From Antedon mediterranea (Eukaryota; Animalia; Echinodermata), in assembly GCF_964355755.1 (NCBI RefSeq), contig NC_092673.1, positions 13,054,948-13,118,947 of the forward strand: a stretch of 64,000 bases of DNA, given 5' to 3'. The notes under the pieces are model-generated. The model searched no databases, was not told the DNA's origin, and saw only the letters and a program-made list of their open reading frames with translations. Below are positions 15,121-54,552 of this stretch, in pieces (within the stretch, counting starts at the first letter, position 1; each line of letters opens with the position of its first letter). Position numbers and translations under genes: made by a program.

Positions 15121-15179
15121 GCTCTACCTCTTAAGCCTGTTTTTCTGTCAGTTTTTACAATGATTTAGTCTGAAATGAA

Positions 15180-19788: not shown

Positions 19789-20620
19789 TACAGTCAACTT
19801 TCCCAATATCGGTCCCCCTCCAGACCGGTTTTCTGGACGGTAGGTTTATAGAGAGTGTTTGGTTACACCTTTTTTACACCTCATATTGGGTTGAGAACCC
19901 TCTAACTAGGCCTAGCTAGAAAGTATTCAGTATGTGGTGTATGTTGACTCAACAAAGCTCTTATTATCAAATCATTACATTTTAGCATTTTAACTTAAAA
20001 TGTATCATAGTTTTTAATTAATAATATCTGTAATTAGTAAGTAGTAATTCCATTCGATGTTATTCTCCATCGCCGATACACCCACTGTAGGATGTATTGT
20101 ACCATGGAGAAATAAGTATTTCTTCATGATTGAACTAAGTTTATCGAAAATAACAACACTGATGCCTAACACCTATCAATCAGAAAACATTTGTTGACTG
20201 GTCATCCACCACACACGCACACATGACATCATTTACTGGGTAAATGCATAGGCCACGCCTCCCTAAATCGGCCAAAAGGAAAAAAAAAGAGAAAAGCTTT
20301 TTGTGCTTTCAGCGTGTTACACACGATCTAGGGTGGAAGGTCAGATCCGACTAAGACAAAACTGACTGAATGTCTTTGTTTTCTGATTGATAGGTGTTAA
20401 TTACGGCATCAATGTTATTATTTTCGATAAACTTAAGTTCAATACATCGTTTATTTTAACTGGGCGTTCAGTTTAGAAGGTATTTCTATTGTTTTTGACT
20501 GAATAATTTGGTCGATATTTGGAAATGGGGAAGTCGGTTTTCGGAATGGATTTTTGTACAGTAAGAATAGGCAATTTTAGCATAAAAACCGGTTTTCTGT
20601 GTGTATATATATATATAAAT
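19789..20620. mobile_element. Decayed non-autonomous Tc1/mariner-like element with an internal inverted repeat
   Basis: Starts ta-cagtcaac; 20130-20190 is inverted relative to 20377-20442; the left arm is missing in copy 2 (~370-bp deletion near 40180). Confidence 0.4.
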
Positions 20621-26184: not shown

Positions 26185-27391
26185 CAGACGTTCCAACCCT
26201 CCCGATTTATCCGGGAGTCTCCCGAATTTTAACATCACCTCCCGGTCTCCGAATTTTAAATATATCTCCCGATTTCACACATTTCTATAAAATTAAAATT
26301 CAGTATTATTGCATTAAATTAAAATCTATCTTCCCACGAAAGTTAATATTACAAATTAATTTAATCTCACACGTCGTACGTACCACCCCGTATGATACAA
26401 CGAACATGTATTGTAATGTATGTAAAGATTGTATAGCATAGTACAGCATACTGTAAGGCGACGTCCTTTGTGTTTACCGACAGTATGTGATTCTTACCTT
26501 TAGCGATAAAGCTACAGTATCGCTTTATCAGTAGAGTAGGTGCACGTGTACTGAAAATTTTTCCTGGTTACAAGTTTGACCTAATTCCCATGCCCAGGGA
26601 AGGCATCATCGTCAGTGTAGTAGTAGTAGTACTGTGCGACGTCCTTTGTGTTCACCGACAGTACGCGATGAATCTACAGAATCAGTAGTAGGCGCGCGTG
26701 TACTGAAATTGCTAGTTACAAGTTCTTTGACCCAATTCCAATGCCCAGGCATCGATCGTACCATCGTACAGTACTGTATGTATTATCACTGCGCATGTAC
26801 CGGAAAAGTACTTGTAGTACTGTATTTTGCGTACATACTTTCGTGAATTGCAATCAGTCGTGACATTTTCTGGTTTTACAGTATGTCGGAAAAACGTAGT
26901 AGCGTAGTTTGAGAGACTAAAGAAAGTTGTAAAAAGAAAAAATATAAAACTAGATTTTCTAATGAATGAAAAAATACGTTTCCGTTTGTTAGTGCGAGTA
27001 ATCAACACGCTACCGAGAGTGAATACAAGTTTTTTTGCACTATTTGTAACGTGAATTTGTCATGCTCACAGGGAGGAATCAACAATGTTGCTGTACACTC
27101 CAGTAAGTTGTTTGTTTTAATTTGTATTTTTGTTAATGAATTAATACAACTAAGTACAGATTTGATTTGTACTGTGAATGATTTTTTATTTAAGTGTATA
27201 CAACAATATAAAGTTAGTAAATATAGTTTGATTTATAATCACCAAACAAGTTCTTTTCTTTTTGTTTGTATTACTCTGATTTGCAAAGAGCTGTCTTAAG
27301 ATTCGTGTTGGTAGTACAGTATACTTTTATTCTTGAACGTTGGTGGCGGTATACCCTCCCGATTTTTAATTCATTTAGGTTGGAACGTCTG
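26185..27391 (+). mobile_element. Non-autonomous hAT-like element with 14-bp TIRs and 6-bp TSD
   Basis: cagacgttccaacc...ggttggaacgtctg flanked by aggatg on both sides; subterminal ctcccg repeats; internal zinc-finger exon F..EW..FPF..FFCTICNVNLSC..GG..DV..H. Confidence 0.8.
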
Positions 27392-27544
27392 AGGATGTGA
27401 CATTAAAAAAAATGGCATATTAAAAAAAAAACAAGGGGACAATACATCTTATTGCCTGGGTCTAATAATACTGTACCAAAGGAGATTACAATACCACTAC
27501 TATTAGGCCGCCTACTAATAATATTAGCCTCTAATACAAAACTA

Positions 27545-27935
27545 AAGCTTGTTTTCCATTAAATCGCTACATCATGTCGACATGTATCGCCGACAGTTGT
27601 CCCCGACTTAGGATAGTGATTTTATGGAAACGCTCGTTGTAGGGTGTCAATCTGGTACTAAACTATGCATGCATTGACACCAAAAGCACAAAAAAGGTAC
27701 GTACACACTTACGTAATTTGAAATGGCAGCAATTGCAAGACGTCAAATTTTAATTTTAAAAAATGCTTCTGCTTTTATGGAAGCAAAAAAAGCAAAACCA
27801 ATGTAAAATCAATAAAAAAAAGAAAACATCGATGTTGGGTTAGAAAAATCTACCAAGAACGTACGAAATATGGACAGTACTCGACACTATTTAGAATTCT
27901 AAAAAGTGATGACCGAGAGTACTTTTACAGGTAGC
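27545..27935 (+). pseudogene. Harbinger transposase N-terminal fragment
   Basis: HRCWVRKIYQERTKYGQYSTLF..DDREYFYR followed by a gt splice donor. Confidence 0.5.
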
Positions 27936-28029
27936 TAAGAAAGTTAGTTAGTAAGTTAGTTATCATATTATGGTTAAAATATTATATAGAGAATTCAAAA
28001 CCTAACTATTTTTAAATAAAATATCTTGA

Positions 28030-30655
28030 TATTAGATTCCAAAGCAGCATCTTAATAATGAGCAGTCCTTACAATTAGGAAGACCTGAAAATAAGGAAAT
28101 CGATGAGGCTGAGACCTGTACCCTTTTTTAGGACAATGATGAAGATCTTATAACAATCAATGACTTAAAACACTAAAAATGAAAGAGTTTTGTAAAATTG
28201 TGTTTATTCCTCAAAAGACATGAAAAGAAAATTATCATCATCAATATACGGTACTAAAATTATATTTTCAGAAGTTTAAGTAATTAAGTACAAACAAACT
28301 GCTCGTTTAATCTTTTCATAGAAATCAAAATCAATAAAGGGGATATTGAAGAGCAAAAATTTGAACTAATTGAGGCAGCTGCCAAATTAATCAATAGTAT
28401 TATTATCAATTAAGTATGTCAAAAACTACAAATAATAAGGAATACCCTTTGGATGATGAGTTAACTGTTGAAAATGGTTTGGCCTACCCAGAAGTTTGAG
28501 GATTTTTTGTAAGAAATTATTTGTTGGAAAGGAGACTGAATTAAAGGTAGCATCAATTGGCCAATCAATCATCCAAGCCGCAAGGCCTAGAGCAATTTAT
28601 AGCTCCATTTCAATTGGGCTTTGCCATACAGATGCACCACCATTTCGAATAAAAATACCTAATAAATTCTTTAAATTTACTTTTAAAATAAGTTTTGAAA
28701 TTTGAAGGAAATGCTGTCATAATTAGTATGGATAGGTTGTGTGACGTAGCGCATGATAGCTCAGTTACCTTTAATACTGACAATGTAGACCACAACATTC
28801 AGATTCAGATTCAGATAGAAAGAATACATTCCATGGAATGGGTATGATAGCATGTATCAAAAATGGAAAGGTATAAATATAACATCCGTTCCCAGAAAAA
28901 TTTTCTCAAGCAGTCAGATATCAAAAGCATCTCATGTGAAAATGGTAACCTACCATGAGTCAAGGAACATACTTAATTGTATGAAGCAGACATCCATATC
29001 TGAATGTGTTATATTTCATATTAAATTTTCCTAATGCTCAGATATTGGTACCTTGTTCGTTTGACCAAAATGCTCTGGGCTGTCGGTCACTGCCATCAAA
29101 ATCACTTGCCCATATACTGCCATGCATTCTCCACTAGAGTTTGAGGTGTACCAAAAAACTAATCATTAAATACATGTAACCTAAAAGTGCATGAACTTCC
29201 CGGGGAAACAGCTGCAGATTATACCAAACACATCTCACATATTGCAAATATTGTCTGCTAAATCAAGAATGCGGATGGAGAAGAAATTCGACAGAAAATA
29301 ATCAGATATTGCGAATACTATATAAGAGTCATTGTTAATCATGCCACCACAGCCAGCCTAAATGAAGTTTGGAATATGAGTTGAACTGCCATCTACATCC
29401 TCTGGATTCTATTTCAACTTCATGTACATCTTTAAAACAATTAAAGACAAACATAATGTAACAGGTAATAAGATAATTTTTATTTTCGTATTAAACAAGG
29501 CTAATTTTAACAGATTTTTATTTGGTTAACAAATATTAAAATGTTTTTCTTATTTTAAATTACAGGTGAGCGAATTTATGGATCAGACAGTTCTGCTGGT
29601 CAGTTGTCATTAGCCTTCACAACATTTAAAGATGGTTCAGACACCTAATATACAATGGATAAAAACACTGATCCAATTCCCATACAATACAAAACAGTGA
29701 AAGCCACATAGCAAGCCAATCTTGTGGGACAATCACAGAAAAAAATCTATGACAGTAAAGCCAACAACCAGACTACAATGGACCAATAAAGGTAAGTTAT
29801 GTTAAAACAAGAATGACATTTTGTTTTCACACCTGAACATTAAAGAATACTGTACACTTCAAGAACAGAATGTATATGTCGTAATTAATGATGAAGTTCG
29901 GTAGCTGAATGAAAATTGAAATCCGAACTTCCAATCACGGGTTAAATTTCATTCTTATCAATCTACCAAAGCTGAGGATACCAAATGGATTGGGAAAATG
30001 TTACAAGGAAAGAAACATCAGATACGCCTGCAATAGTTAAGCATATGTTTAAAGTATGTATGGATGTAACAAATATCCATCGCCAGCAGGTGCCAATATA
30101 AAGTGATGATCAACCATTTGCTATTGCAAAGCAGCTTTAATGGCAACATCTCCAGCAATTTGACGAGGACAAGATATTATAAATGATGTGAGGCCTGCAT
30201 ATTGAGCTGGCAATAAATGGTTGGGATATTGCTCTAAAATAGTTGTTGGTCAGAAACAACATCAGGAAGAGCCGAATCATTAACCTTTGCTAAGCATGTT
30301 AAGCATGCTCGGTATGCACACCAGTTTACACTTGTCTCCTTAAAGTTGAGATAACGGGAATAATGAGACTGGATATGGTTGACAAACAAAAAGGGAAAAT
30401 ATCCACAATTTTTTTTTCGGAGATTGAATGAAACTACAGATGGTCTACCTTGCTTTTGTTAGATTTTTAGTTTTATGTTAAAATCATTTTAGCTGTATGC
30501 TTTATGAATATTTTCCTTGAACCAAACTCATTACTAGCGATGGCTACCCATTCATCTGAGAGATATGGTGTAAGATATGGTATAATTATATGGGCAGAAT
30601 TCATGAATGGCAGATTCCAGCAAAACAGTTCTTAAGATGGCCTTAGATCAGGTTG
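28030..30655 (+). pseudogene. Academ-like transposase remnants interrupted by other fragments
   Basis: KVASIGQSIIQAARPR..QMHHHF, DNVDHNI..FHGMGMIA, DQP.FAIAKQL.WQ, GLHIELA, RWLPIHLRDM, KMALDQ. Confidence 0.6.
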
Positions 30656-32033
30656 GAAACTATCTATTTTGTGAAAAATAAAGTTCCATCTAGGGTATGT
30701 GGTTCAGAGTTCACACGGTGTCAGATTTCACACGCCCACCTCATAAATATTCATTTTTAAACAAACCCATCAACCAATCAAAACACTTTGCTCACTGAAC
30801 TGTAAAATTACTTCTCTGCTTCGATCGTTGATCCAAGCAGTGTACAGCAAAACTTTGAATCCAAAAAACCATATTTTGCAAGTCAAGGTAGGTACAAAAC
30901 TTGAATTTTTCTTAATTACGCAATTAGCTAACGAGTATGGGCCACGTGCAAAAGCCCAAAAAATCTAAATTTAAAGAGATATACTTGTAATTTATGATTT
31001 ATATGGTCTTTAATAACTGGCCAAACAAAAATAATTTGTTTGTCTGATGCTTACGTCATCAACCGATTGTAGGGGAGGGTGAGCGAATACCAGGCCACTA
31101 AATCCCAGTTGGGTTCAAAATTCACCCGGTTGGTGGCGCTATATACTTTTTTTATAATGTACTGGTTTTGGGTGATTAGATGCTTCTTAGCCATCTTAAT
31201 TAGGCGTTTTAACCAAATATAACTCAATAAAACCGTTTTTTATTCAATAGCTATAGTCCTAAATATTTAAAAAATTAAATAAATATAAAAATTAAATATT
31301 ATTATTATTATTTTTTTTTTATTACAAATTTATATCAAGAATTAAATCAAGAACATTAAAAAATTAGTACGTGAGGTATATTTCGGAAGCACGTGCGTGT
31401 GGGCCTGCTAACTAATGTTATTTAATTGGCATACTTAATATACATTATTGTGATAAACATTATTCAAATAATCATTAAATTTTCTTTTTTTTTAAAGGTT
31501 ATCTACAGTCATCTTTAATTTCAACAGTATTTATATTTAAATATTTACTTATAACAGTATGTGTACCGTTTATTTTATACAGAGTGTAAATTATATTTTT
31601 TAATATTTAACAATAAATATATAACATTTACGAAGAAAACATTGTTTATTACTTATCATTTTTGTTTGTTGTTATTAACAATACTGCATATCATTTGTAT
31701 TGGAATCCTTCGAACGAGTGTAGCATCAGATATTTTCCCGTGTTAGGATTGGATCGTATAAAATCAAAGATCCATTCGGACATCAGAGAAACAACATCAA
31801 TGAACATACTGATGCTGAAACATCTAAATCACTCATGTATACAATACAGATAAGTTGCTTCTTTAACCCTAAGTGTTAATTGTTTAATGCTGTTGTTTGG
31901 CATATTTATTTTTAACTGTTTTTATGTTGCGTTTTATTGTTCGATGTCATCAAGTTTATTTGTGTTTAGTACTGTATTGTGAAAAAAAAAGAGTTTAAAA
32001 AAATAAACCGTTCATCGTTATTAAACTTTAGAT

Positions 32034-33700
32034 ATGCCTGGACTACAAGACGGTAAATACAGAAAGTACAGCCAGGAGGTTGTCCGTATTGCCTGTGGGC
32101 GGGTAAGAAAGGGGGAGCTGTCATATGGGGCAGCTGCTCGAATGTATGGCATCCCTAAATCAACAATTAGGGATAAGGTCAGCGGCAGAACCCCCATCGA
32201 ATCGACTCCAGGACCAGATCCGATTTTATCGAAGAAGGAAGAAGAACAGCTAGTGGGATGGGCGATAGGGATGGCGAAGATTGGATATGGAAGGACGATG
32301 ATGGAAATGAAAAGAGTTGTAAAGAAGTTTCTGGATGCCAATGGCAGACCAAACCCTTTCGTCGATAATTTGCCTGGCCGTCGATGGATGCGTAACTTTT
32401 TACGTCGTCATCCAGAGCTATCGATGCGCCTACCTGAGACACTAGGAAGGGAACGTGCTGATGTGACGGTCAATAAGATCCAGAGGTGGTTCAGGGAGTG
32501 TTCCGACTACATGGTTGAGAGCAAGAACGAGGAGGTCTTCGCTGACCCGCGTCGTCTGTTTAAATTTTTAATGCAGACGAAATCGGCTTCCCTCTCCAAG
32601 GGAAGACCGAGAGGGTCATTGCACCCAAGGGGGAAAAGAATGTCTACCAACAAACGGCATCCACCCGGCAACAGATCACGGTCGTGGGTGCATGTAATGC
32701 AACAGGGCAATACATTCCGCCGCTGATCATATTTCCGGGTGTTCGGTTTGCCTATGACCCCCTTGATGGTGCACCAGCCGATTCGTCTTTCGCAAAATCT
32801 AAGACCGGCTGGATGAATTCAGAAATCTTTTACGAATACATAACAAATCATTTTCATCCTTTTGTTCGATCACTTAACATTCCATTTCCTATTATTTTAT
32901 TTGTGGATGGGCACGTATCGCACATCAACTTAGAGACGGCCGACTTTTTTTAAAAGAAAATGACATCATTCTTTACTGCTTACCGTCACATGCCAGTCAC
33001 ATTATCCAACCTCTTGATGTGGCTGTGTACAAGTCGGTCAAGGCGTCTTGGTACAACTGTGTACGCGAGTACACCATACAACATCCTGGTCAAGTTGTCA
33101 CCAAGCAAGCCTTCTCTTCGGTGTTTGCGGAGGCATGGAAAGAGGGCGCAAAATCAAAAAATGCCATTTCTGGATTTCGAAAATGTGGTTTATATCCATT
33201 TAATCCTGCCGCCGTTGACACCGACAAGTTACTGCCCTCCACCATTTACCACGACCACACGTCATTAACACCAGCATCTACTTCAACCACCCCCCCCCCC
33301 CCCCCCCAATACGACAACCACCAACAACAACAACAACAACATCATCACCTACAAAGACCGCCCTTCTTGCTCTGGAATCCTCCATCGGTCCTGACTTCAT
33401 TGCCACATACCATCGTCGGCTTCGAGAAGGATACGATGTGCCGGATCCCATGTACGAAACATGGAAAAAACTGAAGACCATTGACCCACCACCTCACGAC
33501 ATCCCAACAACATCAGGGACGTCACACACCGTTCCCCTTCCTTGACGACCATCAGCCTCGGTAGGAAGGCATCCGGAAACTTCATATACCATCCCTAGAG
33601 CAGCACTTGGTATACCCAAGAAGGGAATACCAACAAAAAGCGAACGCAAATAAGAAGCTGTGAAGCTCGAAACGATGACTAGGCACATGATGTCAAAGGA
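32034..33700 (+). pseudogene. pogo/Tigger-family (Tc1/mariner) transposase: HTH-psq, CENP-B HTH and DDE_1, frameshifted
   Basis: AARMYGIPKSTIRDKV, LSKKEEEQLVGW, PGRRWMRNFLRRHPELSMR, FNADEIGF, GWMNSEIF, LFVDGHVSH, HIIQPLDVAVY, SGFRKCGLYPFN; at least two frameshifts. Confidence 0.9.
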
Positions 33701-41000: not shown

Positions 41001-42197
41001 ATTTTCAGACAAGCCTCCATTAAACCATGTAAAAATGTGTAAGCAGGTGAACTATGGAACCGATATAGCAACCATGACCATACACTTTTACTGAGGTCAG
41101 AGGATATACAATAAAAGGTCCAGTTAGAAATTCATGTAGTGTTTGTGAGAAAGCTGTGGCAAAAAATGCCTGCCACATTTAATGTTTTATAAGAAAATGT
41201 AGAAGCTGTATTGATGCAAGAGAAAGCATTATTTTGTTAATAATGCTTATAGAAATTAGTTGTGTATGTTTCTGGAGATTAAAAGGATAGCTTAGAGTAT
41301 TTAGTCGAATCTTCTGCACACGGAGTCTCTGAAGTAAAGATAACTGCCTGAGAACGTATTAAAGACCTTCGTCTAACGATATATGAAACGATGTTGCAAG
41401 AATCAAGCCAGTACAGACATAGTTCTCGTTGTTCAGACAAGAAGCAATATGTCTTTGAGACAATGGAAGTTAAATTATTAGATGATGAAGTTGCTTTAAA
41501 GAGAGCATCTACTTCTTGAACCTGTCAAAAGAGGGTGAACACTAGATGGAAACAGACAATAACAGACAATAACAAAGAAGTTCAACTGTTGGCATTGTAA
41601 TTGGAGAGGAGAAGGAGATAGAGAGTGTGCCAAAGTAAGAAAACAGCTGTGGTATATGCTCTGTACGAGAGATTGCGTGATCCAAATTTGTTAATATATT
41701 ATCTTGATTGAGTGAATAAATGTAATTAAATATGTGTGCATTGGGCAAAGCTCTATCAAGTGTAGGTGAACTATTGATGACAAAGTTCAAAATATTGAGC
41801 TCATATATTTCACTTTAAATGCAAATATGTAGAACATTCTGGGTTGTAGGGTAGCTATAGGTAGTAAGTGAAATGTCAAGTGATGTTTATTCGTAATTCT
41901 GGAAGGAATTTTGCTTAACCAAACCATAAAAAGGTAAGAATGGTTGTGAGTTGCCTGGCCCTACATGACAGGAGAAGAAATTGGATAGATTCTACTAAAA
42001 ACAAACAAAATTACCACTAGTATATCACTTTATTTTAGGGGAAGAGTTGATCATCAAAGTTATTTTTAATTAGCATAAGTAGACCTGACCCGGGTGGTAA
42101 ATACTTCTTTACCAAAACTAAAACATTTTTCATTTTAAATAAAATTAAAAATTACGTATTCCAAATATTTCAAATTGAGATACTTAGATTTAACTAA

Positions 42198-43304
42198 TGT
42201 AATATAATGTTGGGTTGTTGAGGTACTAATGAAAGACTCTAACTCGCTTGACTGTCGTAACACATATATTATTTATTCAGTATAATACTTCAGTACAATA
42301 TACAACTATAAGTATAGATAAGGAACGGACAATCAATGATGCTGTCGGTGAGGTGTGAAGTTTGTTAGTCTGCTTCTGGAGAAGTGGCTGTAAGGTGTGT
42401 CTCTGTGAGGTGGCTGTAAGGTGTGTCTGGGCCCTTCTGAAACTTGGGAGTATATTGGCTCAGTTCATTTGCATAATGTCATTACATCATCTGTGAGGGT
42501 AACGATTGGTCCTAAGTTGATCCAGGGGTGTTTAAGTGGGAGTGATTAACGGTATAATAAGGTATTTCTGTGATGGATGACACTTAAATAGTGTCGATCA
42601 CTCCTGGTTTAACGATGGGAAAGTCACAAAATTAAGCTAAGTGTTTTCTTTAGGGATTCTATTATAAACTAAATGGTCATTAAAACATCTGGACAAACTC
42701 TCCTTTGGACTTTCTGGGTCAAGTTTGTGAACCTATTTGAATTCCGATACAAAGGTCAATTTCTTAAATATAAAAGTATATCTTTATATCACATCCCTCT
42801 ATTTCCCTTTTTTTTTTTTCTAATCTATTTAAAATATAAAAATGGTTATAATAGTGGCATGCAAAATTAAAGTTATATAAAAGAAAAAAAACATTATTAT
42901 ACATATAAGCAAAAATTGAGTTAGCCAAAACCATTGACTCTGAAGTGTAACCTTATCACTTTCACTCTCTCTCTTCTCTCTCTTAAAAAAAATGAAATTA
43001 AAAATGAATTTGGTATAAAATTCGCGTAAATCAAACATAAATCAGTTAAAAAATAAAATTACAAAACTTAAAAATAGTATGTTACATTGAACATACATCA
43101 AATCGTGCGACACTCATCGCGTTCTAATGGTCTTCAAACATAAATCATCAAATCAAAACATAAAAATTGAGAAACTGTGGCTGATTAGCCTAAAATCAAA
43201 TATCAAACTTAATCACTTAAAACTTTAAAGGAAACAAATGTGTGTGTCCCGTTGACACAAACTTATCCACAATATATCGTTATCGTCACAACTTTATCGA
43301 TTTA
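42198..43304 (+). repeat. Left inverted arm: segment T (42198-43023) joined directly to segment B (43024-43304)
   Basis: T is the reverse complement of 51823-52649; B is the reverse complement of 50185-50457. Confidence 0.93.
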
Positions 43305-43702
43305 AGCATTTATATTTACAGGTAATTACGATTTCAATCGGTCGGCAAATTCGACTTTTGTACTCAATGTCAAAAAAAATTACAATTAAAAGTACTAAGA
43401 AAATCTCCTGTTATTGTATATCAATTAATTAATGCTTGAGATTAACGACTCAAAGGTTAAACAAAATATTTGTTACAAAATGATTGTCGTTCTTTTCAAT
43501 ATCTCAATATATCGATCATCAAAATTCAAAATTAATCATTATCAAAAAACTCGTTACAAAATCAATTCTTAAACATAAATTCAATTCTCTTTTAACTGAA
43601 ATCACATCATTACTAAACAAATCTCATCAAATACGTAGACTATGCTATCATTAATTTAGCAAATGTCGTAATTTAAAAATAATCTTGCAAAAAAAATTTA
43701 AA

Positions 43703-45617
43703 TCAGTAATTCGTTGCATTATACAAGCGTTTTATGAATCGTTTTGGCGATCCACTTATCGGTATCTGTTTATCATTAATGATCTCTTTAATCAATTTAT
43801 CTGTATCGTTATATCTGTCAATATTCCACCAAAATTTGCGATCATTAGATTCGTGTTTTGTTTTATCAGTGTTGCGTTTGGCTGAAGTCGGTTTAGAATA
43901 CGAAACTAAAACTTGGAAATGTCCTGCTTTAAATCTACCTCGGTTTAATGTCATAATTGAATCATTAGGTGCTGTCATAATTAGATTAGTTTGTTCCTTG
44001 ATTTGTTCTTCTTTCATTTGGAATGGGGCTGCTAATCCCATGTTATTCTCTACACAGTCAATGTAAGGTTGCAAGTTAAGGGGTTCTACTTTAGTTGGAT
44101 GTGTAAGGGTATCTGATTGCAATTGGGTGGGTGTCCTATCATGTTCGTCTACAAATTCAACATTGGTTTCGTCATTTACTACATTAATGGTGTTTTGGAT
44201 TTTCTCGTTATTATCATCAGTGGGTTCATTCAACAATTGTTTAAGTTTTTGGAGATGTGTAAAATTTTTGCGTTCTTTGGGTGTTCTCATAAAACAGGGT
44301 TTCAGTCTGTTATAATTGAATACGTCGCGAAGTATTTCTCCTTTAATCGTCGCTAGGATGTAGTGTGTTCTGTCTAGTACTTCATGAATCACTAATGGTC
44401 CGACCCATTCTGCGGCGATTTTCTTTGAATTTGCCGTTAGTGATGATGATGTTGGCTTGTATAAATATACGAGTTGTCCTACTGAGCAAATTGGACATTT
44501 TTCTAAGCGTTGGGAAATTTTTGAGTTTTGGACGTTTTGTTGTGTTCGCTGTAATTGTAGCATTGTCTGTGAAATGTTTTGAAATTTCTTCTTGAGATGT
44601 TCAAAGTATTCTTCATAGGAATGAGACAATCCTGAAATAGGGTTAAATGCTAATGAGGTCAAACTTGGAGGTTGGCGGCCAAAAACTAATTCGTAAGGGG
44701 AGTGGTTTCCTAGATGTGGGGATGAAAACGAGTTATAAGCATAACATGTTGTTGATACAAATCTAACCCAATCTGTTCCGAATTGGTTAAGGTTGACCTT
44801 TAACAGGTCCGATACGGTGCGGATATGACGTTCAACTTGTAAACTACCGTGATTGTGGACGCTGATGATTTTCCTATCAATATTAAGGGTGTTACATAAT
44901 AGTGTTAATAATTTTCCTGTAAGGGAGGTTGCTGCATCTGAAATAAGACGAGATGGTGGGGGTCCAAAAATACTGATGACCTTTTGAATTAGTGCTTCAC
45001 AAATTGTTTCGGCATCAATGGATTTCAAAGGTACACAAATCAAAAATCTAGTTATCTCATCACATACTACCATAATATGTTTAAAACCTGAAGGTGATGT
45101 TGGCATACTCTTAAAATCTAGACTGAGTGTATGAAAGGGACGGTAAGTTGCTGGTACTCGATCGTGTAAAGGACGTAATTTATCGGTTTTGGGACGAAAT
45201 TGTTGACATCTAAGACACGCTTGGGTATAATTGTTGACTTTCTCGAACATAAGGCATGTAAAATAATTTCCTAATAGTAAGGTAAGTACGCATCGTACCT
45301 TGGTGGCTACTTAACAAATTGTCGTGATACTGAGAAATAATAGTCTCTGCTAAGTTTTCAGGAACAGCTAATTGCAATACAAATTCTCCACCTTTATCTT
45401 GGAAAAATAAACGGAATAGTAAACCGTTGCACAATATGTACTGCTCTGACTTATTCTGAACTGCACGAGCTGCTTTCTTATCAGCTGGAAGGATATCATG
45501 AACTAAATAATCGTAAACTGGCTTAAAAAATGGTGAAGTTTCTTGTTCAACACGTAATTGTTTAACATCTACTGGGAGGTTATAATCTCTAATTATCTTT
45601 CTTTGAATAACATCCAT
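43703..45617 (-). pseudogene. pol: Gypsy-type DDE integrase (HHCC zinc finger, catalytic core, GPY/F-like motif, long C-terminal tail); frameshift near 45250
   Basis: YHDNLLSSHQG..ACLRCQ; LSLDF..VVCDEITRF..LISDAA..QVERHIRT; SPYELVFGR; WVGPLVI. Confidence 0.92.
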
Positions 45618-45625
45618 TAATCTAT

Positions 45626-46246
45626 CTAAGTCTTGTTTTTTGGGATGTGTGCTGACTTAAATTCAGTTATGTTGGGTACTAGTGGTTTGGGCGATGTATA
45701 CAATTCAACTGGTACGTTTCGATGTGTAGTGTCTTTGCTTTGCTTATTTTTGTCTACTAGTCGTTCCTCTGGAGGTTGTCGAATGTTTACATTACGTATT
45801 GGGGGTGGCGTTACGATAGGTGGCGTTATGATAGGCGGTGATCGATGTGCGTTTGTTTGTTGTCTCGTGATTATCTGTGGTGTAGCGGTAGGTTGAGGTG
45901 TAGGTCGCGTGTTTGTTGTCACTGGATTTTGATTAATGACGGGCGTTTGTACTGGTTTGGGTTTATGTAGGTCAGGTATATTTATTCCCATTTTCTTGGC
46001 GTATGACCTTGTTACTGGTCTGCTAGTAGATGTGTTTGTAATCGGGTTAAGAGATTCAGTCTCTGTAATATTAAATGCAATGGGTACAACTTGATCAATT
46101 TCGGAATCGTCGTCACGAGGGGCTCGGGAGAGAAAATCTGCTAAAACTAATTCAGTTCCTTTCTTATAACCAATTTGGAAAATGTATCCGGACAATCGTA
46201 ATATTAGTTTCTGTAGACTGATCTTTTGAATTCCAAATTTGTACAA
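45626..46246 (-). pseudogene. pol: RNase H C-terminus plus Pro/Thr-rich linker of pol (frameshifted on both sides)
   Basis: LQKLILRLSGYIFQIGYKKG..LADFLSR, RPVTRS, then a P/T-rich tract. Confidence 0.85.
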
Positions 46247-48398
46247 TTGCTGAGTGGTCTACGAATGCATCAAATTCGCAACCCTTTAGTAAGTGTCGAA
46301 ATGCTGAAACGTTAATGTAAAGTCCAAATAACTCTAGTTCTGTGACGCTATATCGTTGACAGGCTTGTGGTAAGATTTTGGAATAATAACCTATTATGTG
46401 TTCTTTACCGTTTACTGTTTGTGTTAAATATGAACCTGTTGCGGTTCTTGAAGTGTCGCTATATAGCGTAAATCTACCTTCTTTTCTAGGCATTTGAAGA
46501 GTTGGTGGTTTAACCATTAATTGTTTAATTTCGTCAAATGCTTTCTGGTGTTCAGTAGACCAACAAAATTTTCGGCGTTTGCTTGCGAGTGTGTGTAACG
46601 GACGTAAAATTGATTGTATTTGAGGGAAAAAATGGGATACATAATTTACTGCACCAATAAGTCGTTTAGTTTCTATATGGGTTCGTGGGACTGGCAAATT
46701 TCGGATAGCTGCACACCTGTCGCCTAATGGTGTGATACATGCGTGTCCTGAAGAATTAATCAGGATGGTGTGTCCCATATATTGCACTTTATTCTTGAAT
46801 AACTTACATTTCTTTGGACAAATTCTAAAACCATTTAATTGTAGGGCTTGTAAAACGGAAACGAGGTGCTGCTTATGAGCAAATTTGTCTTGGCTAAATA
46901 AAATAATATCATCATGATGGGCGATACAGAATTCTCTAGAATTTGGGATTTCATTTAAAATTTCGTCAATCTTTGCTCGAAATATACCTGGTGAAACGTT
47001 TAATCCTTGTGCTAATCTCTTATAATAATAATGTTTTCCACCATGATATGAAGCTATACCTGTATATTGTTGGGCATGTTCGGTTAATGGTACACAGTGG
47101 AACGCTGATTTCAAATCAATTACGCTAAGAATCTGTGCATTAGCGTTACCTATTGTTTTCAAAGTTTCGGCTAATAATGGGAATGGGTGATTAATACGTT
47201 TTATCCTGGAATTTAGATAGCGAAAGTCTGTGACAACTCTTTTATCTTTTGAATTTTTCTTTGAAACAAGAAGGACAGGGGAAGTATACGATTGGTGTCC
47301 TACTGCTAAGATTCCTAGTTTGACTAATTTGTTCAATTCGGCCTCAATAACATGTTTGTCTTTGTCTGTCGCGAAGTATGGTCGAATAAAAAATGGTTCA
47401 TTGTTAGAGAGGTGTATGTCAGCTTTGAAGTTTGGGCAGCTAGATAGTTCACCATAAAGTGAAAATGCGTTTCTGTTTTGTTGTAAGGTTTTATACAAAT
47501 CTTCTTTTTCTCTATGTGTTAAAACGCTGTCTGTTAAATCAACTTGTTTTCTAATTATTTCTTCCTCGGTTAAAGATAGCAATGGGTCTGTACGTTCTAA
47601 ATGTGGGTACTTGTTTGCGTTGTCATTGGTCAACTTTATTCTATCAATTGGTAGGTCGTTAGTAACTGTTACAAGGTTGGTTAAGTGAAGGCTCGCGATA
47701 GGTTGATGTGTATTTAGAGATACGTTTCTGTTTGTGTTGTTAGTGATATCAATGTTGGTTTCTCCTCTATGTAATTTTACTAACATGTCTGATGGACAAA
47801 GTTTTGAAATATGGGTGGTTGCATGTAGAACAACATCAGAATTGCGTACGAAGGCGGGAACCCTTCCTTTTAATTTAACTGTTTTAGTATCACCGTGTTT
47901 AAGAAAAATCTTGTGTACTGGACAAAAGCTAAAAATCTTTGGTCTAATGCGAAATGTGTTTTCCTTAAAATTTAAAGTACCGTCGAGTTCAGACAATGTT
48001 TCGGTTCCAAGTATCAGGTCGATACCTGTCAAATTTTTAACGATTAATGCTGAAATTTTAAATTTGTGTCCTTGGATAAATAATTCGAATTGCACTAAGT
48101 GGTTGGCATATAAGAAGTCACCGTTACCTAATCGAAGTTTGGTTGTGTTCACTTTAACTGGCTTTAAACGCGATAAATAAAGTGAGGAATTAACGTACGA
48201 TTGTGAGATTATAGTTCTAGTTGAACCACTGTCAAATAAAGTTAAAACATTTCTACCATCTGGTAAATTTCCTTTAACGTAATTTCTGTCGTTAAGTAAC
48301 AAATCAATATTATCTGAGTTCCCTAAGTATTTTGCCTTAAAATTGTCGTATTTAGTATGGGGGGCCAGATTATAGGCGGCATCTAGTCCCCTTTTTAA
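46164..48398 (-). CDS. pol: Pol: aspartic protease, reverse transcriptase, RNase H
   Basis: LFDSGS (protease); RVVTDFRYLN, IDLKSAFH, LAQGLNVSP, AHHDDII (RT); LYSDTS, YSVTELE, FVDHSA (RNase H); frame open from the gag stop region. Confidence 0.95.
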   Translation of the reverse strand, partial: LKRGLDAAYNLAPHTKYDNFKAKYLGNSDNIDLLLNDRNYVKGNLPDGRNVLTLFDSGSTRTIISQSYVNSSLYLSRLKPVKVNTTKLRLGNGDFLYANHLVQFELFIQGHKFKISALIVKNLTGIDLILGTETLSELDGTLNFKENTFRIRPKIFSFCPVHKIFLKHGDTKTVKLKGRVPAFVRNSDVVLHATTHISKLCPSDMLVKLHRGETNIDITNNTNRNVSLNTHQPIASLHLTNLVTVTNDLPIDRIKLTNDNANKYPHLERTDPLLSLTEEEIIRKQVDLTDSVLTHREKEDLYKTLQQNRNAFSLYGELSSCPNFKADIHLSNNEPFFIRPYFATDKDKHVIEAELNKLVKLGILAVGHQSYTSPVLLVSKKNSKDKRVVTDFRYLNSRIKRINHPFPLLAETLKTIGNANAQILSVIDLKSAFHCVPLTEHAQQYTGIASYHGGKHYYYKRLAQGLNVSPGIFRAKIDEILNEIPNSREFCIAHHDDIILFSQDKFAHKQHLVSVLQALQLNGFRICPKKCKLFKNKVQYMGHTILINSSGHACITPLGDRCAAIRNLPVPRTHIETKRLIGAVNYVSHFFPQIQSILRPLHTLASKRRKFCWSTEHQKAFDEIKQLMVKPPTLQMPRKEGRFTLYSDTSRTATGSYLTQTVNGKEHIIGYYSKILPQACQRYSVTELELFGLYINVSAFRHLLKGCEFDAFVDHSAIVQIWNSKDQSTETNITIVRIHFPNWL

Positions 48399-48404
48399 AA
48401 ATCC
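48360..48404 (-). promoter_or_regulatory. Putative -1 ribosomal frameshift signal between gag and pol
   Basis: Minus strand G GAT TTT TAA, then GGGGACTAGAT-loop-ATCTGGCCCCC hairpin 6 nt downstream; pol is in the -1 frame and open from this point. Confidence 0.75.
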
Positions 48405-49360
48405 TGCTGGTGGCTAGGGTAGTAATTGTTTGACTGTTGGTATGGGTATGGCGGGGGATAGTTTCCGTAAGAGCGGTTTTGTTGTCGGCAGTGCCTTGCT
48501 ATGTGGCCTGGTTTCCCGCAGTAATAACAGGTTGGGGGAGGTTGTCTATATCTTGGGGTCGGTGGGGTCTGGAATCGGGGTTTGTATGGGCTTGGGCTTC
48601 GGTTTCGTCTTGGGATATAATTTCGGGTGGGGGAACGTGAGCGTCGAGTATCATCATTAAGGGATCGTTTTGTTGTGGCCATGTCTAACTTGAGAGAATT
48701 TATCTCATGTTGGAGCGATTCGAGACTATTAGGCCTATCTGTTTCCTTATTGATATTGAATGAAACTTCCCGTGTGGCATCATCTACGGAAAGGTCAAGG
48801 TAATTTTGTGTGCTATTTACAATATTTTCAATAGTGGCATCGATTGGGGTGGACATGGCTACAGCTGCTCTACATTTTGGTGGAAGGGTCGAAATAAATT
48901 TATTCTTTATCTGCTGGTCAGCGTATCCAATTCTGTCTGCGGCTTGTTTGATTTTGGTTAAGTGCTTTTCGGCGTTGTCGCCAGTGGTGTATGTAATTGA
49001 ATCGTATTCTCTTATGTGCGCATAGATTGATTTGTTTTTACTAAACCTGTTGATGAATTGGGTTTTTAAGGATTCTAGTGAATCGAACTGCTTTCCCTCA
49101 ATCCAGAGTCTAGCTTGGCCCTGAAGGCTACGTTTAAAAATACTTATTACATTAATTAATTGGGCATTGTTTACAGGGTTTTCTAAAGTGTGGGCCTCAA
49201 GGTAGTCGGTAAACGATAAGTAGTGTGCACTACATTGGTCGTGATCGGTTATGGAACCGTCATATCTTTTGGGAAGGAAATCGGTTTGTCTTAGGTGGGG
49301 CACGGGGTGAGGATTGACGGGCTCATTTAAAATTACTTCGTTATCAACAACGTCGACCAT
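48395..49360 (-). CDS. gag: Gag with CCHC zinc knuckle
   Basis: 321 aa, uninterrupted; FKRSLQGQARLW..LKTQFINRF capsid-like motif; RS/P-rich linker; CYYCGKPGHIARHC. Confidence 0.93.
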   Translation of the reverse strand: MVDVVDNEVILNEPVNPHPVPHLRQTDFLPKRYDGSITDHDQCSAHYLSFTDYLEAHTLENPVNNAQLINVISIFKRSLQGQARLWIEGKQFDSLESLKTQFINRFSKNKSIYAHIREYDSITYTTGDNAEKHLTKIKQAADRIGYADQQIKNKFISTLPPKCRAAVAMSTPIDATIENIVNSTQNYLDLSVDDATREVSFNINKETDRPNSLESLQHEINSLKLDMATTKRSLNDDTRRSRSPTRNYIPRRNRSPSPYKPRFQTPPTPRYRQPPPTCYYCGKPGHIARHCRQQNRSYGNYPPPYPYQQSNNYYPSHQQDF

Positions 49361-49692
49361 ACTTTATAATATTAATTATTAATCAAATATCAAAAACAAT
49401 TTAGTGTATATGTAAACTCTCACTTTTTCAATAAAGGTTACAAATCAAGATTCGAAATGGTTTCGACTTACCCCAAATGCTTCGGATCCAATTAAAATGA
49501 ATTAAAAGAATGCAAAAGTGTTCAAAAATGTTTAAATGTTCAAACAACGAATTAAAAAAAATGCGAAAGGTGTTCATCAATGTTCAAAAAAGTAAATGTT
49601 AAAAAAAACGATCGAAAAAAAAACGGCGTGAAGTTGAAAGTCTCTAAACGAAACAGTTCTTGTCCGCTTGCTTCTGTTTTGATTCTTCTTGG

Positions 49693-49899
49693 GTCTTCCT
49701 CGATTATCTTCTTTGTCTTTATCCAATGGTTATAATTTCATAAAATTTCTGCTTGTCTCGATTTCATTCAAATATATAATTTCAGCTTGTCTTTTGTGTC
49801 TTCCTCGATTATCTTCTTTGTCTTCATCCAATGGTAATAATTTGATAAAATTTCTGCTTGTCTCGATCTCATTCAAATATAATTTCAGCTTGTCTTTTG
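49693..49899. repeat. Tandem duplication (~105 bp x2) in the gag leader
   Basis: gtcttcctcgattatcttctttgtct... at 49693 and 49798. Confidence 0.9.
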
Positions 49900-50011
49900 A
49901 GTCAAAGTAAATTTCTCTCCTTTCAAACAAATGTGGTTATTTTTGTCTTTGTCTTCGTCTTCGTGTCTTGTTAAGTGTTTATTTCTTGTTTTCTCACTCC
50001 GTTCCTTATGA

Positions 50012-50029
50012 AATTTGGGTCTTCCACCA
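50012..50029 (-). promoter_or_regulatory. Candidate primer-binding site
   Basis: TGGTGGAAGACCC.. immediately follows ..TATATTACA on the gag-sense strand; TGG is complementary to tRNA 3' CCA. Confidence 0.7.
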
Positions 50030-50184
50030 TGTAATATAATGTTTGGTTGTTGAGGTACTAATGAAAGACTCTAACTCGCTTGACTGTCGTAACACATATA
50101 TTATTTATTCAGTATAATACTTCAGTACAATATACAACTATAAGTATAGATAAGGAACGGACGGTCAATGATTGATGCTGTCAG
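50030..50184 (+). repeat. Internal direct copy (segment A, R/U5-like) of the left terminus 42198-~42348
   Basis: tgtaatataatgtt.ggttgttgaggtactaatgaaagactctaactcgc...taaggaacggac; contains AATAAA on the gag-sense strand. Confidence 0.95.
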
Positions 50185-50457
50185 TAAATCGATAAAGTTG
50201 TGACGATAATGATATATTGTGGATAAGTTTGTGTCAACGGGACACACACATTTGTTTCTTTAAAGTTTTAAGTGATTAAGTTTGATATTTTGATTTTAGG
50301 CTAATCAGCCACAGTTTTCTTGAGTTTTATGTTTTGATTTGATGATTTATATTTGAAGGCCATTAGAACGCGATAAGTTGTCGCGCTATTTGATATATAT
50401 TCATTGTACATATTCTCTAAGTTCTTTAAATTTGACCAATTGACGTTTGATTAACGC
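50185..50457 (-). repeat. Segment B of the right arm (inverted copy of 43024-43304)
   Basis: taaatcgataaagttgtgacgataa.. pairs with ..ttatcgtcacaactttatcgattta; more diverged distally (gtttgattaacgc vs gcgtaaatcaaac). Confidence 0.9.
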
Positions 50458-50722
50458 TCGAGGGAGGAGTAGAGCCAATTACGAGCTATATATATAAACA
50501 ACCGGATGAGCAGACTATAAATAAGTCGCACGAGCGTATCAAATATACAGTATTTACTGTCGAATTATAAGTTAATTTACTTTTGTGAGATTGTTATAAT
50601 AGTTGAACTTGAAATTTTATTGTTTGAGTTTTATATCGTTTATTTAGTTTAATATTGTTTATTTTAAATACATTTTAATTTTATTTATCTTAATTTTAGT
50701 CAATTCCAAATTTCCCCCTAAA

Positions 50723-51598
50723 ATGGAATCCGAAAAGCTTGACGTTACACAGTTATGCTTAAAACACAAAATTCAAATGACGCCCCTGTCCACAGAATGT
50801 GCCCTTATAAAGAAGATAATCCTTTACCAAAGCGAACAAAACGTAATTCTCCATATTACCAAAATGATGCCATTTACTTTAGATTCCTTGAAAAGAGTTT
50901 TATTATTCCTTTGCGACATCCGTCCAGCAGACCAACTGACAAACCTCAAATTAAATACCCTTTTACACATTGGCAGTTATTTATGTTGTTTCGACAAAAT
51001 GTCCTCCCCCATTATAGACTACATTTGGAAGCATAAGAGTGAACCAGCCCTACTTGACTTTTCCACAATCGACCTTTCCATTAATCTAGACGGCATCGCC
51101 ACTTGTATACCAAACACACATGAATTTCACAGAAAACATATTTATTCTATGACCCTCCTGCTCTTAGCAATTACAAAAGACATCAAAGCCCCACAATGCA
51201 CAACATTTTTTTCAAGAGTCCGACAACAAACAGGCATCATACCCCAAGACGAATTAAAACCTAGCGAACACTCACCATTTGGATATGTTGTAACTAAATA
51301 TAAGAAAAAACTATATTCGCACATTCGTAACATGCAGTACCTGGAAAATAAATACCAAGATACCCCCTGCCAAATTTGTCAATGTAACCCCGAAATTAAA
51401 AACTTTCATACTGATTGTACAATCAACAAATGCTGCGGAACATTGTTTCACAAAAATTGCCAACAAATAAACAAGAAATACCAATGCTTGAATTGCGGTA
51501 TGGTATATTTGAATGAGATGCCTTACACTGCTACCTACATATTGGACGACGGCACACTGTGGACTACATCCCATTATTATCGATTATTATATGATTGA
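50723..51598 (+). CDS. Accessory ORF antisense to gag-pol; C-terminal RING/PHD-like Cys/His cluster, possible BTB-like N-terminus
   Basis: Uninterrupted 291 aa; CQIC..KCCGTLFHKNC..CLNC; upstream TATAAA (50517) and cagt (~50548). Confidence 0.75.
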   Translation: MESEKLDVTQLCLKHKIQMTPLSTECALIKKIILYQSEQNVILHITKMMPFTLDSLKRVLLFLCDIRPADQLTNLKLNTLLHIGSYLCCFDKMSSPIIDYIWKHKSEPALLDFSTIDLSINLDGIATCIPNTHEFHRKHIYSMTLLLLAITKDIKAPQCTTFFSRVRQQTGIIPQDELKPSEHSPFGYVVTKYKKKLYSHIRNMQYLENKYQDTPCQICQCNPEIKNFHTDCTINKCCGTLFHKNCQQINKKYQCLNCGMVYLNEMPYTATYILDDGTLWTTSHYYRLLYD

Positions 51599-51822
51599 TT
51601 TCAATTTATCCTTTATAAATTTTTTTTCTATTTCAAATAATTAACGAGAGTCGACTTCTTGACCGATGTTTTTTAGGGAAACCCAACCGTTGTGATGTTT
51701 ATATTTCGGTAATCCGAGTGTAGCATGCCTCCAAAGCAACGGACCCACAATTATGTCGATCTTGAAGAACACTTTTGTTTTTTTTATATACATTTTTTGT
51801 TTCAAATTTTATATAAATTCTG

Positions 51823-52649
51823 GAATTTTTATACCAAATTCATTTTTAATTTCATTTTTTTTAAGAGAGAGAAGAGAGAGAGTGAAAGTGATAAGGTTAC
51901 ACTTCAGAGTCAATGGTTTTGGCTAACTCAATTTTTGCATATATGTATAATGTTTTTTTTTTCTTTTATATAACTTTAATTTTGCATGCCACTATTATAA
52001 CCATTTTTATATGTTAAATAGATTAAAAAAAAAAAAAAAGGGAAATAGAGGGATGTGATATAAAGATATACATTTATATTTAAGAAATTGACCTTTGTAT
52101 CGGAATTCAAATAGGTTCACAAACTTGACCCAGAAAGTCCAAAGGAGAGTTTGTCCAGATGTTTTAATGACCATTTAGTTTATAATAGAATCCCTAAAGA
52201 AAACACTTAGCTTAATTTTGTGACTTTCCCATCGTTAAACCAGGAGTGATCGACACTATTTAAGTACAGATTTGACAGTGTCATCCATCACAGAAATACC
52301 TTATTATACCGTTAATCACTCCCACTTAAACACCCCTGGATCAACTTAGGACCAATCGTTACCCTCACAGATGATGTAATGACATTATGCAAATGAACTG
52401 AGCCAATATACTCCCAAGTTTCAGAAGGGCCCAGACACACCTTACAGCCACCTCACGGAGCACACACCTCACAGCAGACCTACACACTTCACACCTCACT
52501 GACAGCATCATCGAATGTCCGTTCCTTATGTATACTTATAGTTGTATATTGTACTGAAGTATTATACTGAATAAATAATATATGTGTTACGACAGTCAAG
52601 CGAGTCAGAGTCCTTCATTAGTACCTCAACAACCCAACATTATATTACA
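51823..52649 (-). repeat. Right terminal inverted repeat (segment T)
   Basis: Reverse complement of 42198-43023 with a few substitutions, an ~11-bp indel near 52267 and a diverged patch at ~52455-52520. Confidence 0.95.
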
Positions 52650-52670
52650 CTAATGATGCCTAATGCCAGT

Positions 52671-54552
52671 TAGTCAGGTGGCTTAACAACAAAAAATGAG
52701 GAAATCGTTACACGGTGGACAAAAGCGCCAAATTTGGCATGGAGCTTCGTTGGGACCTACCAATTGATTTTTGCCTAGGAGCCACTCTGGTCGCAATTTA
52801 TTTTTCAAGATGGCGGCCAAAATCCAAAATGGCCGCCAATATATTGGAAAATCACATTTAATTTGTTACAGAAGTCACATATAGGCAAATGAACTATCAA
52901 AACATAAGTATTCATGGTCATTAAAACATATTTTAGACATGTTGCATAAAATGGGTCATTCGTTGTTAAGATGGTGGCTAAAATCCAACATGGCTGCCAG
53001 TAGCCTAAACTGGAATATCATTCTCTGGTTGCAGAAATCGCATATATCAAACGAAGTAGGAAAACACATGGAGTAGGCCTAATCATGGTCATTGAAACAT
53101 ATTTTAGACATGGTACATAATATAGGTCACTCGTTGCAAAGATGGTGGGAAAAATCCAAAATGGCTGCCAGTAAACTAGGAAATCACATACAGTATCTGT
53201 GGACGGCAGAAGTAATATGTAAATGAAGTAGCTGTAGTAAATGGTAGAGGTGGTATGTAAATTACAAGTAACTGTAAAAAAATCTATAAAAAAAAGTTAT
53301 AACCAGTTCAGTTTCTGAAACCACATAAAATGTGGTATTTTTGGGAAAATAAAGATTGAGGGCGCTGTTCACATAAGTAAAAGTACACTTTTCTACCTGT
53401 AACTAACTAAGTTTTTGTCAGAACATTTGTTAAATGGTCTTATTTGATAGATAATTACATTTTCTTTATATTAAAGAAAACAAATTTTACATTAAATATC
53501 CATAGTTCAGATAAATTTACGTTAAGTGCCTAAAATCAGCAAATATAACACATTTTAATACATAACAAATACTATTGGATGTTAGCAAATTACAAATTTA
53601 GTTATCATAAATAGGATTCTTTTACATTTTCATAGAAACTGTTTTATTATAAAACATATAAATATATATTTATCTAACAATTTCTCATAAAAAAACTTTT
53701 ACGACCACTAGTTTTCGAGATATAGAAATGTGTACTTCCAGTACAGGTCAAAGGTCAATAACAAGAATCTGGGTCATTTTCTTGGAAAAGTTTGTATTAG
53801 ACTGAATAGAAACATCCATCTTCTGATTAATTTGAGACCTATTTAAAGTTTGTCCAACTGTTAGGTACCACGTTATATGACATAGGTCAAAGGTCAAAAA
53901 TACCAAAAATCATACTTCCGGCCATTTTTTGACAAATTTTTCCATTAGGACGAATATTAATATGCATCTTCCAAATAATTTGACACTAAAATTATTTAAT
54001 TTAATGTAAGCGTTTAGGAGATATGGTTATTTTGTTTTCAATTGGATTAAAATATTCAAATTGAGGTCAAAGGTCAAAGAAAAACATTAGAAATTTGATA
54101 ACATGGGTTTTTATAACTAGCATGGTTAAAAAATTCATAAAATGCAATCCTTGGACTTTCCTTCTGATTTGCAGACTAAAATACATTAGGAATGGACTAT
54201 TTGTGACTTTGTATACGATTATATATGTATTTCAATTTCAATGGCTACCACTTTAAATTTTGGGCGCCATCTTGGAACTCATTTTATATAATATTTCCTG
54301 AATTGGTTTTACTGACTTCAGAAATTCTTGATTCAGTACATTATTTGTCTATTTGTAACTTTTACAGCCAGAGATATATGATATACCAATTTACTGGCAG
54401 CCATTTTGGATTTTGGCCGCCATCTTGGAAAATCGGAAGCTGATCGGGTGGCTCCTAGGCAAAAATCAATTAGTACGTCTAAAAGAAGCCTCATGCAAAA
54501 TTTGGTGCTTTTGTCCAACTTGTAACGTTTTAGTCGCTAAGCCACCTGACTA
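52671..54552. mobile_element. Non-autonomous DNA transposon, probably Academ (TAG termini, 3-bp TSD)
   Basis: tagtcaggtggctta...taagccacctgacta, imperfect TIR of at least 170 bp; agt duplicated at 52668-52670 and 54553-54555; empty site cc-agt-aggcc at ~22311. Confidence 0.85.

Follow-up and report, generated by a model that had tools for sequence, protein, structure and literature searches.

We analysed a stretch of 64,000 nucleotides from the echinoderm Antedon mediterranea (RefSeq assembly GCF_964355755.1, contig NC_092673.1, forward strand positions 13,054,948 to 13,118,947; hereafter the window, numbered from its first letter), which at 42198-52649 carries a Ty3/Gypsy-type retrotransposon copy of 10,452 bp whose full long terminal repeats (LTRs) are inverted. 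We regard the insertion, which is real and unusual, as most likely a rare copying accident within an ordinary Gypsy family; the reading as a new element class is not supported. Two minus-strand DNAs primed by transfer RNA (tRNA) on the RNAs of two family variants were probably fused head to head and inserted as one unit with two U5 ends (U3, R and U5 being the unique 3′, repeated and unique 5′ parts of an LTR).

Boundaries and insertion site

The inserted element begins with TGTAATATAA and ends with TTATATTACA, and both ends are flanked by CTAA, which accounts for 0.5% of the 4-mers in the window. An earlier note on this DNA had described TG...CA termini, a CTAA duplication and an empty site in a second copy of the region, and all three were borne out by the sequence and by comparison with that other copy. 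Its statement that the element arrived as one unit is compatible with the empty site, and a single integration event is the simplest origin, but the empty site is no proof of it. The terminal inverted repeats (TIRs) of about 825 bp that it reported are real, with inner borders that were off by 3-4 bases: BLAST aligned 42198-43020 with 52649-51827 at 94.2% identity, the two arms differing by 16 substitutions and 6 indels.

The region around the insertion is present twice in tandem in the window (15668-31752 and 35931-64000, 96-98% identity). Flank contigs of two public sequencing runs, designated X1 and X6, carry the empty site. Because the X1 flank contig agrees with the first, empty copy of the region at 11 of 11 listed differences and no second form was seen in X1, the apparent segmental duplication may represent two haplotypes set in tandem.

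Anatomy of the element

Self-comparison of the element recovered the inverted arms. It also showed that the left terminus recurs inside the element in direct orientation and that there is another inverted pair, termed C, at 43055-43304 and 50185-50433 (90% identity). The earlier note had missed both, and likewise the primer-binding site, the polypurine tracts inside the arms and an extra open reading frame of 291 amino acids on the plus strand. The features are as follows, with the source of each assignment in brackets.

22295-22298, no strand: empty site with a single CTAA (other copy of the region)
42194-42197, no strand: left target-site duplication CTAA (sequence and self-comparison)
42198-42793, minus: 596-bp 3′ LTR belonging to the gag-pol unit, TG...CA, with U5 at the left terminus (sequence; U3/R/U5 division putative)
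42794-42822, minus: polypurine tract (PPT) directly before the LTR (sequence; form same as in relative L006)
42823-43020, minus: 3′ untranslated stretch B1, common to the right arm (self-comparison)
43055-43304, minus: 3′ untranslated stretch C, behind pol (self-comparison)
43703-45310, minus: pol piece 4, integrase core (D-D-34-E, WxGPL) and C-terminal tail (open reading frame (ORF) list, Pfam)
45210-45656, minus: pol piece 3, integrase H2C2 finger, first part (ORF list, Pfam)
45626-46258, minus: pol piece 2, end of the ribonuclease H (RNase H) region and Pro/Thr-rich linker (ORF list; no Pfam match)
46164-48413, minus: pol piece 1, protease, reverse transcriptase (RT) with HHDD motif, RNase H (ORF list, Pfam)
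48395-49360, minus: gag with CCHC zinc knuckle, open (ORF list, Pfam)
49361-50011, minus: 5′ leader containing a roughly 106-bp tandem duplication at 49684-49903 (self-comparison)
50012-50029, minus: primer-binding site (PBS), its TGG start directly after the CA of the LTR piece (sequence)
50030-50185, minus: truncated 5′ LTR, last ~152 bp only (likely R-U5), direct copy of the left terminus (self-comparison, 95%)
50185, no strand: head-to-head junction, one shared base (sequence)
50185-50433, plus: stretch C as found in the second variant, at 90% identity to its left counterpart (self-comparison)
50434-50722, plus: leader of the extra ORF, with CCAAT (~50475) and a TATA-like word (~50487) (sequence; promoter role putative)
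50723-51598, plus: extra ORF (ORF3), 291 amino acids from ATG (ORF list)
51827-52024, plus: stretch B1 of the second variant (self-comparison)
52025-52053, plus: PPT of the second variant (sequence)
52054-52649, plus: 596-bp 3′ LTR from the second variant, with AATAAA at 52570 and U5 at the right terminus (sequence)
52650-52653, no strand: right target-site duplication CTAA (sequence and self-comparison)

The element thus consists of two units joined head to head. Unit 1, on the minus strand, comprises the last 152 bp of an LTR followed by PBS, gag, pol, C, B1, PPT and LTR, and unit 2, on the plus strand, comprises C, the leader, ORF3, B1, PPT and LTR, that is, the last 2.46 kb of a second family variant. 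ORF3 lies between C and B1 on the right side only, the left side having a spacer of 31-34 bp where the other variant carries the extra ORF. In each arm the purine tract is followed by TGTGATATAA, from which 596 bp lead to the tip. Each arm is an ordinary 3′ end (B1, PPT, LTR), and both outer ends of the element are U5 ends. In the terminal U5 sequence the left and internal copies differ at one site and the right copy at two more. The junction base 50185 is the A of an initiator-like word; the LTR holds 12 such words, and the junction corresponds to LTR position 52498, about 95 bases behind a CCAAT.

Pfam located the gag zinc knuckle, protease, RT, RNase H, H2C2 finger and integrase core, all on the minus strand. 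The gag-pol cassette had previously been called complete, which holds for its domains but not for its frame, since pol is split over four reading frames. The claimed combination of a Ty3/Gypsy-type RT and a DDE integrase in a copy with inverted termini was confirmed by Pfam, by Ty3 as the closest solved RT and by the presence of the catalytic triad.

Family evidence in contigs of public runs

Parts of the stretch are carried by 16 public runs, and the contigs of five of these (X1, X4, X6, X13 and X9) were compared. Between 49900 and 50600 we placed 132 contigs of X1, 89 of X4, 61 of X6 and 2 of X13, the last being uninformative; individual inspection in this junction region covered 26 of the 285 pieces and 20 of the 48 loose ends, and the depth bins sum all pieces. 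Contig depth does not equal copy number, and X4 may be an RNA run.

The sole adjacency specific to the inverted layout is that at 50185, and no contig across it was found among the listed pieces of X1, X4 and X6, in all three of which the family is multicopy. The bins beside it were filled by contigs of another kind: bins 50188-50235 in X1 and 50188-50259 in X4 each consisted of one contig (depth 370.9 and 119.4, respectively) entering from the pol side of C, with loose letters resembling the pol side of C in the window, and near 50185 in X6 two contigs predict a depth of 2596.2 versus 2596.1 seen, so that no bridging contig is needed. Loose ends at 50172, among those listed, run on into U3-like sequence. 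Since contigs at single-copy depth persist in these runs (19.6 and 16.3 in X1, 6.0 in X4), a junction shared by about ten ORF3 copies should have appeared.

In X1 the depth was 18 in the flank, 578-642 in pol, 716 at PBS-U5 and 176 in ORF3, which gives ratios to the flank of about 32-36 for pol, 40 for the PBS and about 10 for ORF3. An X1 contig of depth 159 bridges C to the ORF3 leader and ORF3, and in X6 the ORF3 side is joined to B1 at depth 785; thus, ORF3 lies behind pol and on the same strand in the family. Family contigs differ from the window pol by 0-9 letters per 300-970. These data show that the family has two variants, with and without ORF3, and we infer as the simplest parent map LTR-PBS-gag-pol-C-(ORF3)-B1-PPT-LTR, an ordinary direct-LTR element. 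The contig adjacencies are compatible with direct LTRs, and no full-length family copy was present among the contigs. The earlier note had held that ordinary direct LTRs in all other copies would make this copy a one-off rearrangement; the absence of the 50185 junction among family contigs of three runs is in line with that outcome, but the test used short contigs from other individuals, in which rare variants may be lost. As a count of solo LTRs, summed depth over the LTR was rejected, because overlapping contigs inflate it; a step at the PPT was seen in X1 and X4 and not in X6 or X9.

Related elements

A search with the RT-RNase H region returned 107 long proteins, 97 of them at 37-74% identity and the other 10 at 22-30%, with Holothuria leucospilota and Patella caerulea among the named relatives and a cluster member from Apostichopus. 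The tree was built from 48 rows, comprising the window, 36 of the 107 proteins and 11 of 47 metagenome loci, the rest being left out. Forty of the 48 rows formed one clade (100/100) apart from the 8 outgroup rows, whose long branches were flagged. The RT active-site motif is HHDD in the window and mostly IMDD or HHDD, also IHDD or VHDD, in the relatives, and not YxDD. The clade with the HHDD/IMDD motif is deep and stands well apart from the other hits. D-34-E spacing was found in 11 of the 13 relatives checked, with no match in two.

Scanning 28 loci of at least 3 kb for a PPT followed by TG...CA and TGG yielded candidates in L004, L006 and L011 only. L006, which falls together with the window in the starred group of 19 rows, has a 297-bp LTR with AATAAA 72 from its end, followed by gag, and a PPT form like that of the window. 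The direct order of PPT, LTR and PBS in the three loci favours direct LTRs in the relatives, as support and not as proof. Long inverted arms around gag-pol were found in none of the 21 metagenome loci of at least 5 kb (of 47) that were self-compared, which is weak evidence because such contigs break at repeats; short hairpins were present in L024, L030 and L039, and a 275-bp fold-back at the L018 contig end. Among viral contigs there were 7 pattern matches and no relative.

Several loci carry additional features. In the close relative L002 an ORF resembling GDSL/SGNH hydrolases (5217-5807; E 1.8e-05, below the Pfam cut-off) lies behind pol on the same strand, so an accessory slot at that place is normal in the clade. 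L018 (1-14884) contains extra ORFs of 809, 1130, 282, 207 and 208 amino acids and others, with no Pfam match for those scanned, and a 67% repeat at 14-kb spacing. L035 (6081-8729), outside the clade, has direct 248-bp LTRs and an ORF resembling the baculovirus F-type env.

Origin of the inverted layout

When an LTR element is copied normally, its U5 end is fixed by the tRNA primer and its U3 end by the PPT, and RNAs packaged together recombine (PMC6894440). Since both ends of the present element are U5, both strands likely began at the tRNA primer, and such priming would account for TG...CA at both ends in a form usable by integrase. The arms, with their 16 substitutions and 6 indels, and the C copies differ far more than pol does from the family contigs, and the right terminal U5 is unlike the left and internal copies; both observations argue for two parents. 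In the sequence of events that we favour, one particle would have packaged the RNAs of both variants, and one minus strand would have been copied as far as the likely RNA start at 50185. Copying would then have continued on the 3′ end of a minus strand left incomplete on the ORF3 variant, or the two would have been ligated there, and the integrase would have inserted the fused product as one piece. The internal LTR piece ends at the initiator-like base, as expected if it is R-U5 and the strand ran to the RNA 5′ end. Reverse transcription of any RNA made from unit 1 should yield an element with normal direct LTRs, and the inverted layout is thus predicted not to breed true.

Several observations weigh against this fusion during reverse transcription. 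Over the 25 bases of R beside the junction, the left copy departs from the internal one by about 3 substitutions and a 4-bp duplication, which one clean round of reverse transcription would not yield, and the RNA start at the junction is itself putative. Rare variants may be lost from the contigs, for which 26 pieces out of 285 and 20 loose ends out of 48 were inspected singly, and the contigs stem from individuals other than that of the window, the X1 flank agreeing with the empty copy at all 11 listed differences; moreover, no host contig of the public runs showed a whole direct-LTR copy or a flank-U3 junction. Among the relatives, the LTR-PBS paths lie on short-read contigs that are probably collapsed or permuted, candidates were confined to 3 of 28 loci, the L011 LTR has no AATAAA and the L004 PBS is offset by one base.

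We considered other origins. The main alternative, itself unlikely, is that a normal copy came first and that a later break in its 5′ LTR was repaired by reverse copying of 2.46 kb from the second variant, present as complementary DNA or as an ectopic copy. The LTR tips agree at 9 of 10 bases (TGTGATATAA and TGTAATATAA), so that such a repair could retain the target-site duplication, the changes are clustered beside the junction and a neighbouring transposon 20 bp away is a possible source of the break; however, exactly U3 would have to be lost, with one breakpoint in the last 3 LTR bases and the other at the initiator-like base, and the patch starts exactly at a U5 tip. An assembly error joining two alleles or two loci would fit the tandem region, since with 96-98% identity between its copies and only the first form in X1 haplotypes may be mixed there, and also the absence of the junction from every run. 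We nevertheless give it a very small chance, as the two flanks and their duplication come from a single site, the arms do not mirror one molecule, two opposite insertions at the same four bases would be required for a chimera and in X1 the flanks beyond U5 ends vary (4 loose ends, agreement 0.58). A fold-back read artefact was rejected, the arms not being mirror copies of each other.

It is also doubtful that the layout defines a self-propagating minority subfamily, in which gag-pol and ORF3 RNAs would each be primed from R-U5 and their DNAs would anneal in C, producing two U5 ends in each cycle. The anatomy permits this, as both units end in B1-PPT-LTR and overlap in C, ORF3 stands at about ten times flank depth in X1 and contigs drop rare variants; yet ORF3 copies with the junction should appear near depth 159 in X1, where 50188-50235 is covered by the pol-side contig only, the intact PPT and TG start in both arms would be unexplained and pol is broken in this copy. 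Least probable of all is a true Gypsy-to-Ginger intermediate, that is, a composite built elsewhere from two opposed insertions and a deletion and then moved by cut-and-paste. The integrase triad is present, and PMC2836005 proposes that the TIRs of Ginger1 arose from two opposed LTRs flanking an integrase. Against such a move, no second copy and no donor site were seen in the contigs of the public runs, CTAA is not the Ginger1 target CCGG/CCGT, and excision by this integrase is putative only, with pol in four frames. The broader claim is of a Gypsy lineage of marine invertebrates with a form that has two U5 ends, propagates itself and escapes LTR finders. Two opposed RNAs, one for gag-pol and one for the zinc-finger-like ORF3, would be assembled into it in every cycle, or its own integrase would move it as a DNA unit, making it a living Gypsy-to-Ginger intermediate; we consider this claim quite improbable.

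The extra ORF

The ORF3 frame is open for 316 codons, compared with at most 140 in 500 shuffles. ORF3 is multicopy, only part of the family copies carry it, and family contigs span most of it, departing from it in 1-2 letters and leaving no gap. No homologue of ORF3 was found, including in a search of 1.84 billion cluster representatives and 160-510 amino acid proteins, and the best Pfam E value was 0.026 for the whole and 0.082 for the Cys-rich part. The single-sequence structure model was poor (predicted local distance difference test score 45), and a fold search with this model returned nothing at E 0.001. The protein has a helical N-part and a Cys/His-rich C-part with eight Cys/His residues at 216-258 that by eye resemble a RING-type zinc finger; a likeness to BTB is likewise by eye only. 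It has no transmembrane stretch (best 19-residue hydropathy 1.1) and is therefore not env-like. Our guess is that ORF3 is a putative ubiquitin-ligase-like helper against host silencing. The parent family is notable in itself, combining the deep HHDD/IMDD clade with a 291-residue accessory ORF without found homologue.

Other features of the window

A 1.9-kb element at 52671-54552, 20 bp to the right of the retroelement, has TIRs starting with TAGTC and a 3-bp AGT duplication. Neither the other copy of the region nor the X1 and X6 flank contigs contain it, and it is very deep in X6; its TAG ends and 3-bp duplication presumably recall Academ elements. Further mobile-element remnants are an RT fragment (5989-6948) and a P-element-like helix-turn-helix (HTH) (23598-24167). 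A pogo/Tc5-like HTH with a DDE_1 transposase (32025-33474) lies between the two copies of the region, and a 1.3-kb unit resembling miniature inverted-repeat transposable elements, with long imperfect inverted arms (82% over 284 bp), occupies 14194-15487. A tandem array at 8403-9260 consists of about ten copies of a 62-bp unit, the core being 98-99% alike.

Implications and comparison with known systems

The copy shows that retroelement DNA of 10 kb bounded by U5 on both sides can reside in a chromosome between clean target-site duplications and, by implication, that DNA of this form is a substrate for the integrase. Programs that search for LTRs or TIRs will misclassify copies of this kind. 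Should the copy prove single and dead, its interest would be confined to recording a copying error.

With Ty3/Gypsy elements the copy shares gag, the order protease-RT-RNase H-integrase, a PBS after CA, a PPT before TG, a TG...CA LTR with AATAAA and a 4-bp duplication, and it differs from them in having no 5′ U3 and outer U5 ends that face each other. Two full direct LTRs are not present, as only 152 bp are repeated directly and the full LTRs are inverted. The RT is nearer to Ty3/Gypsy than to retroviruses, the closest solved RT being that of Ty3 (PDB 4OL8, E 1.7e-49; next match 1.2e-28), and the DDE integrase has an H2C2 finger. The suggestion of an undescribed retroelement class was not supported, because the arms are normal PPT and LTR and the defining junction at 50185 was not found among the family contigs of three runs. 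A described Gypsy class with inverted LTRs was not found in a literature search of partly accessible sources, outside which lay Repbase, Dfam, supplements and most subscription journals.

A DIRS-like architecture, also proposed earlier, did not hold. DIRS-1, according to PMC7192593, likewise has RT/RNase H between non-identical inverted repeats and an internal repeat of terminal sequence; the present copy differs in its DDE integrase, its target-site duplication and its internal repeat, which consists of one end beside the PBS. The DIRS internal complementary region is defined in the same source by both outer ends lying side by side. We therefore rejected the internal repeat as such a circle junction, since it is an LTR 3′ piece beside the PBS. 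The arms are normal PPT and LTR, and no family match to a tyrosine recombinase was obtained in the 6 ORFs scanned of the 8 listed.

Ginger1 elements, according to Bao et al. 2010 (PMC2836005), have TIRs of 40-270 bp and the target CCGG/CCGT, and their TIRs are proposed to originate from two opposed LTRs flanking an integrase. The present copy resembles them in its Gypsy-like integrase between inverted ends starting with TGT, in the 4-bp duplication and in the layout of the proposed origin, and differs in its 823-bp arms, the CTAA target and the presence of RT, RNase H, gag, PBS and PPT. Multicopy DNA transposition as in Ginger1 was not seen, the junction being unseen among the family contigs of three runs, which can drop rare copies. 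Of the previously suggested link from Gypsy to Ginger, the structural likeness to this scenario stands but nothing further; pol is broken, and any mobility is putative. The copy is a concrete case of a layout that Bao et al. (PMC2836005) only proposed as the first Gypsy-to-Ginger1 step, and the origin scenario thereby becomes countable.

Complex insertions formed by template switching in plants, as presented by Sabot and Schulman 2007 (PMC1950507), arise from two parents fused in reverse transcription and have one target-site duplication, and both properties, two parents and one duplication, are found here. In those complexes three LTRs point the same way, both cores are full and the outer LTRs are near-identical, whereas the present copy combines an inverted layout with a single full core, part of a second unit, outer LTRs that differ and an internal piece of 152 bp. 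In its workings this copy comes closest to the template-switch complexes that Sabot and Schulman described (PMC1950507), but with its two parental units inverted.

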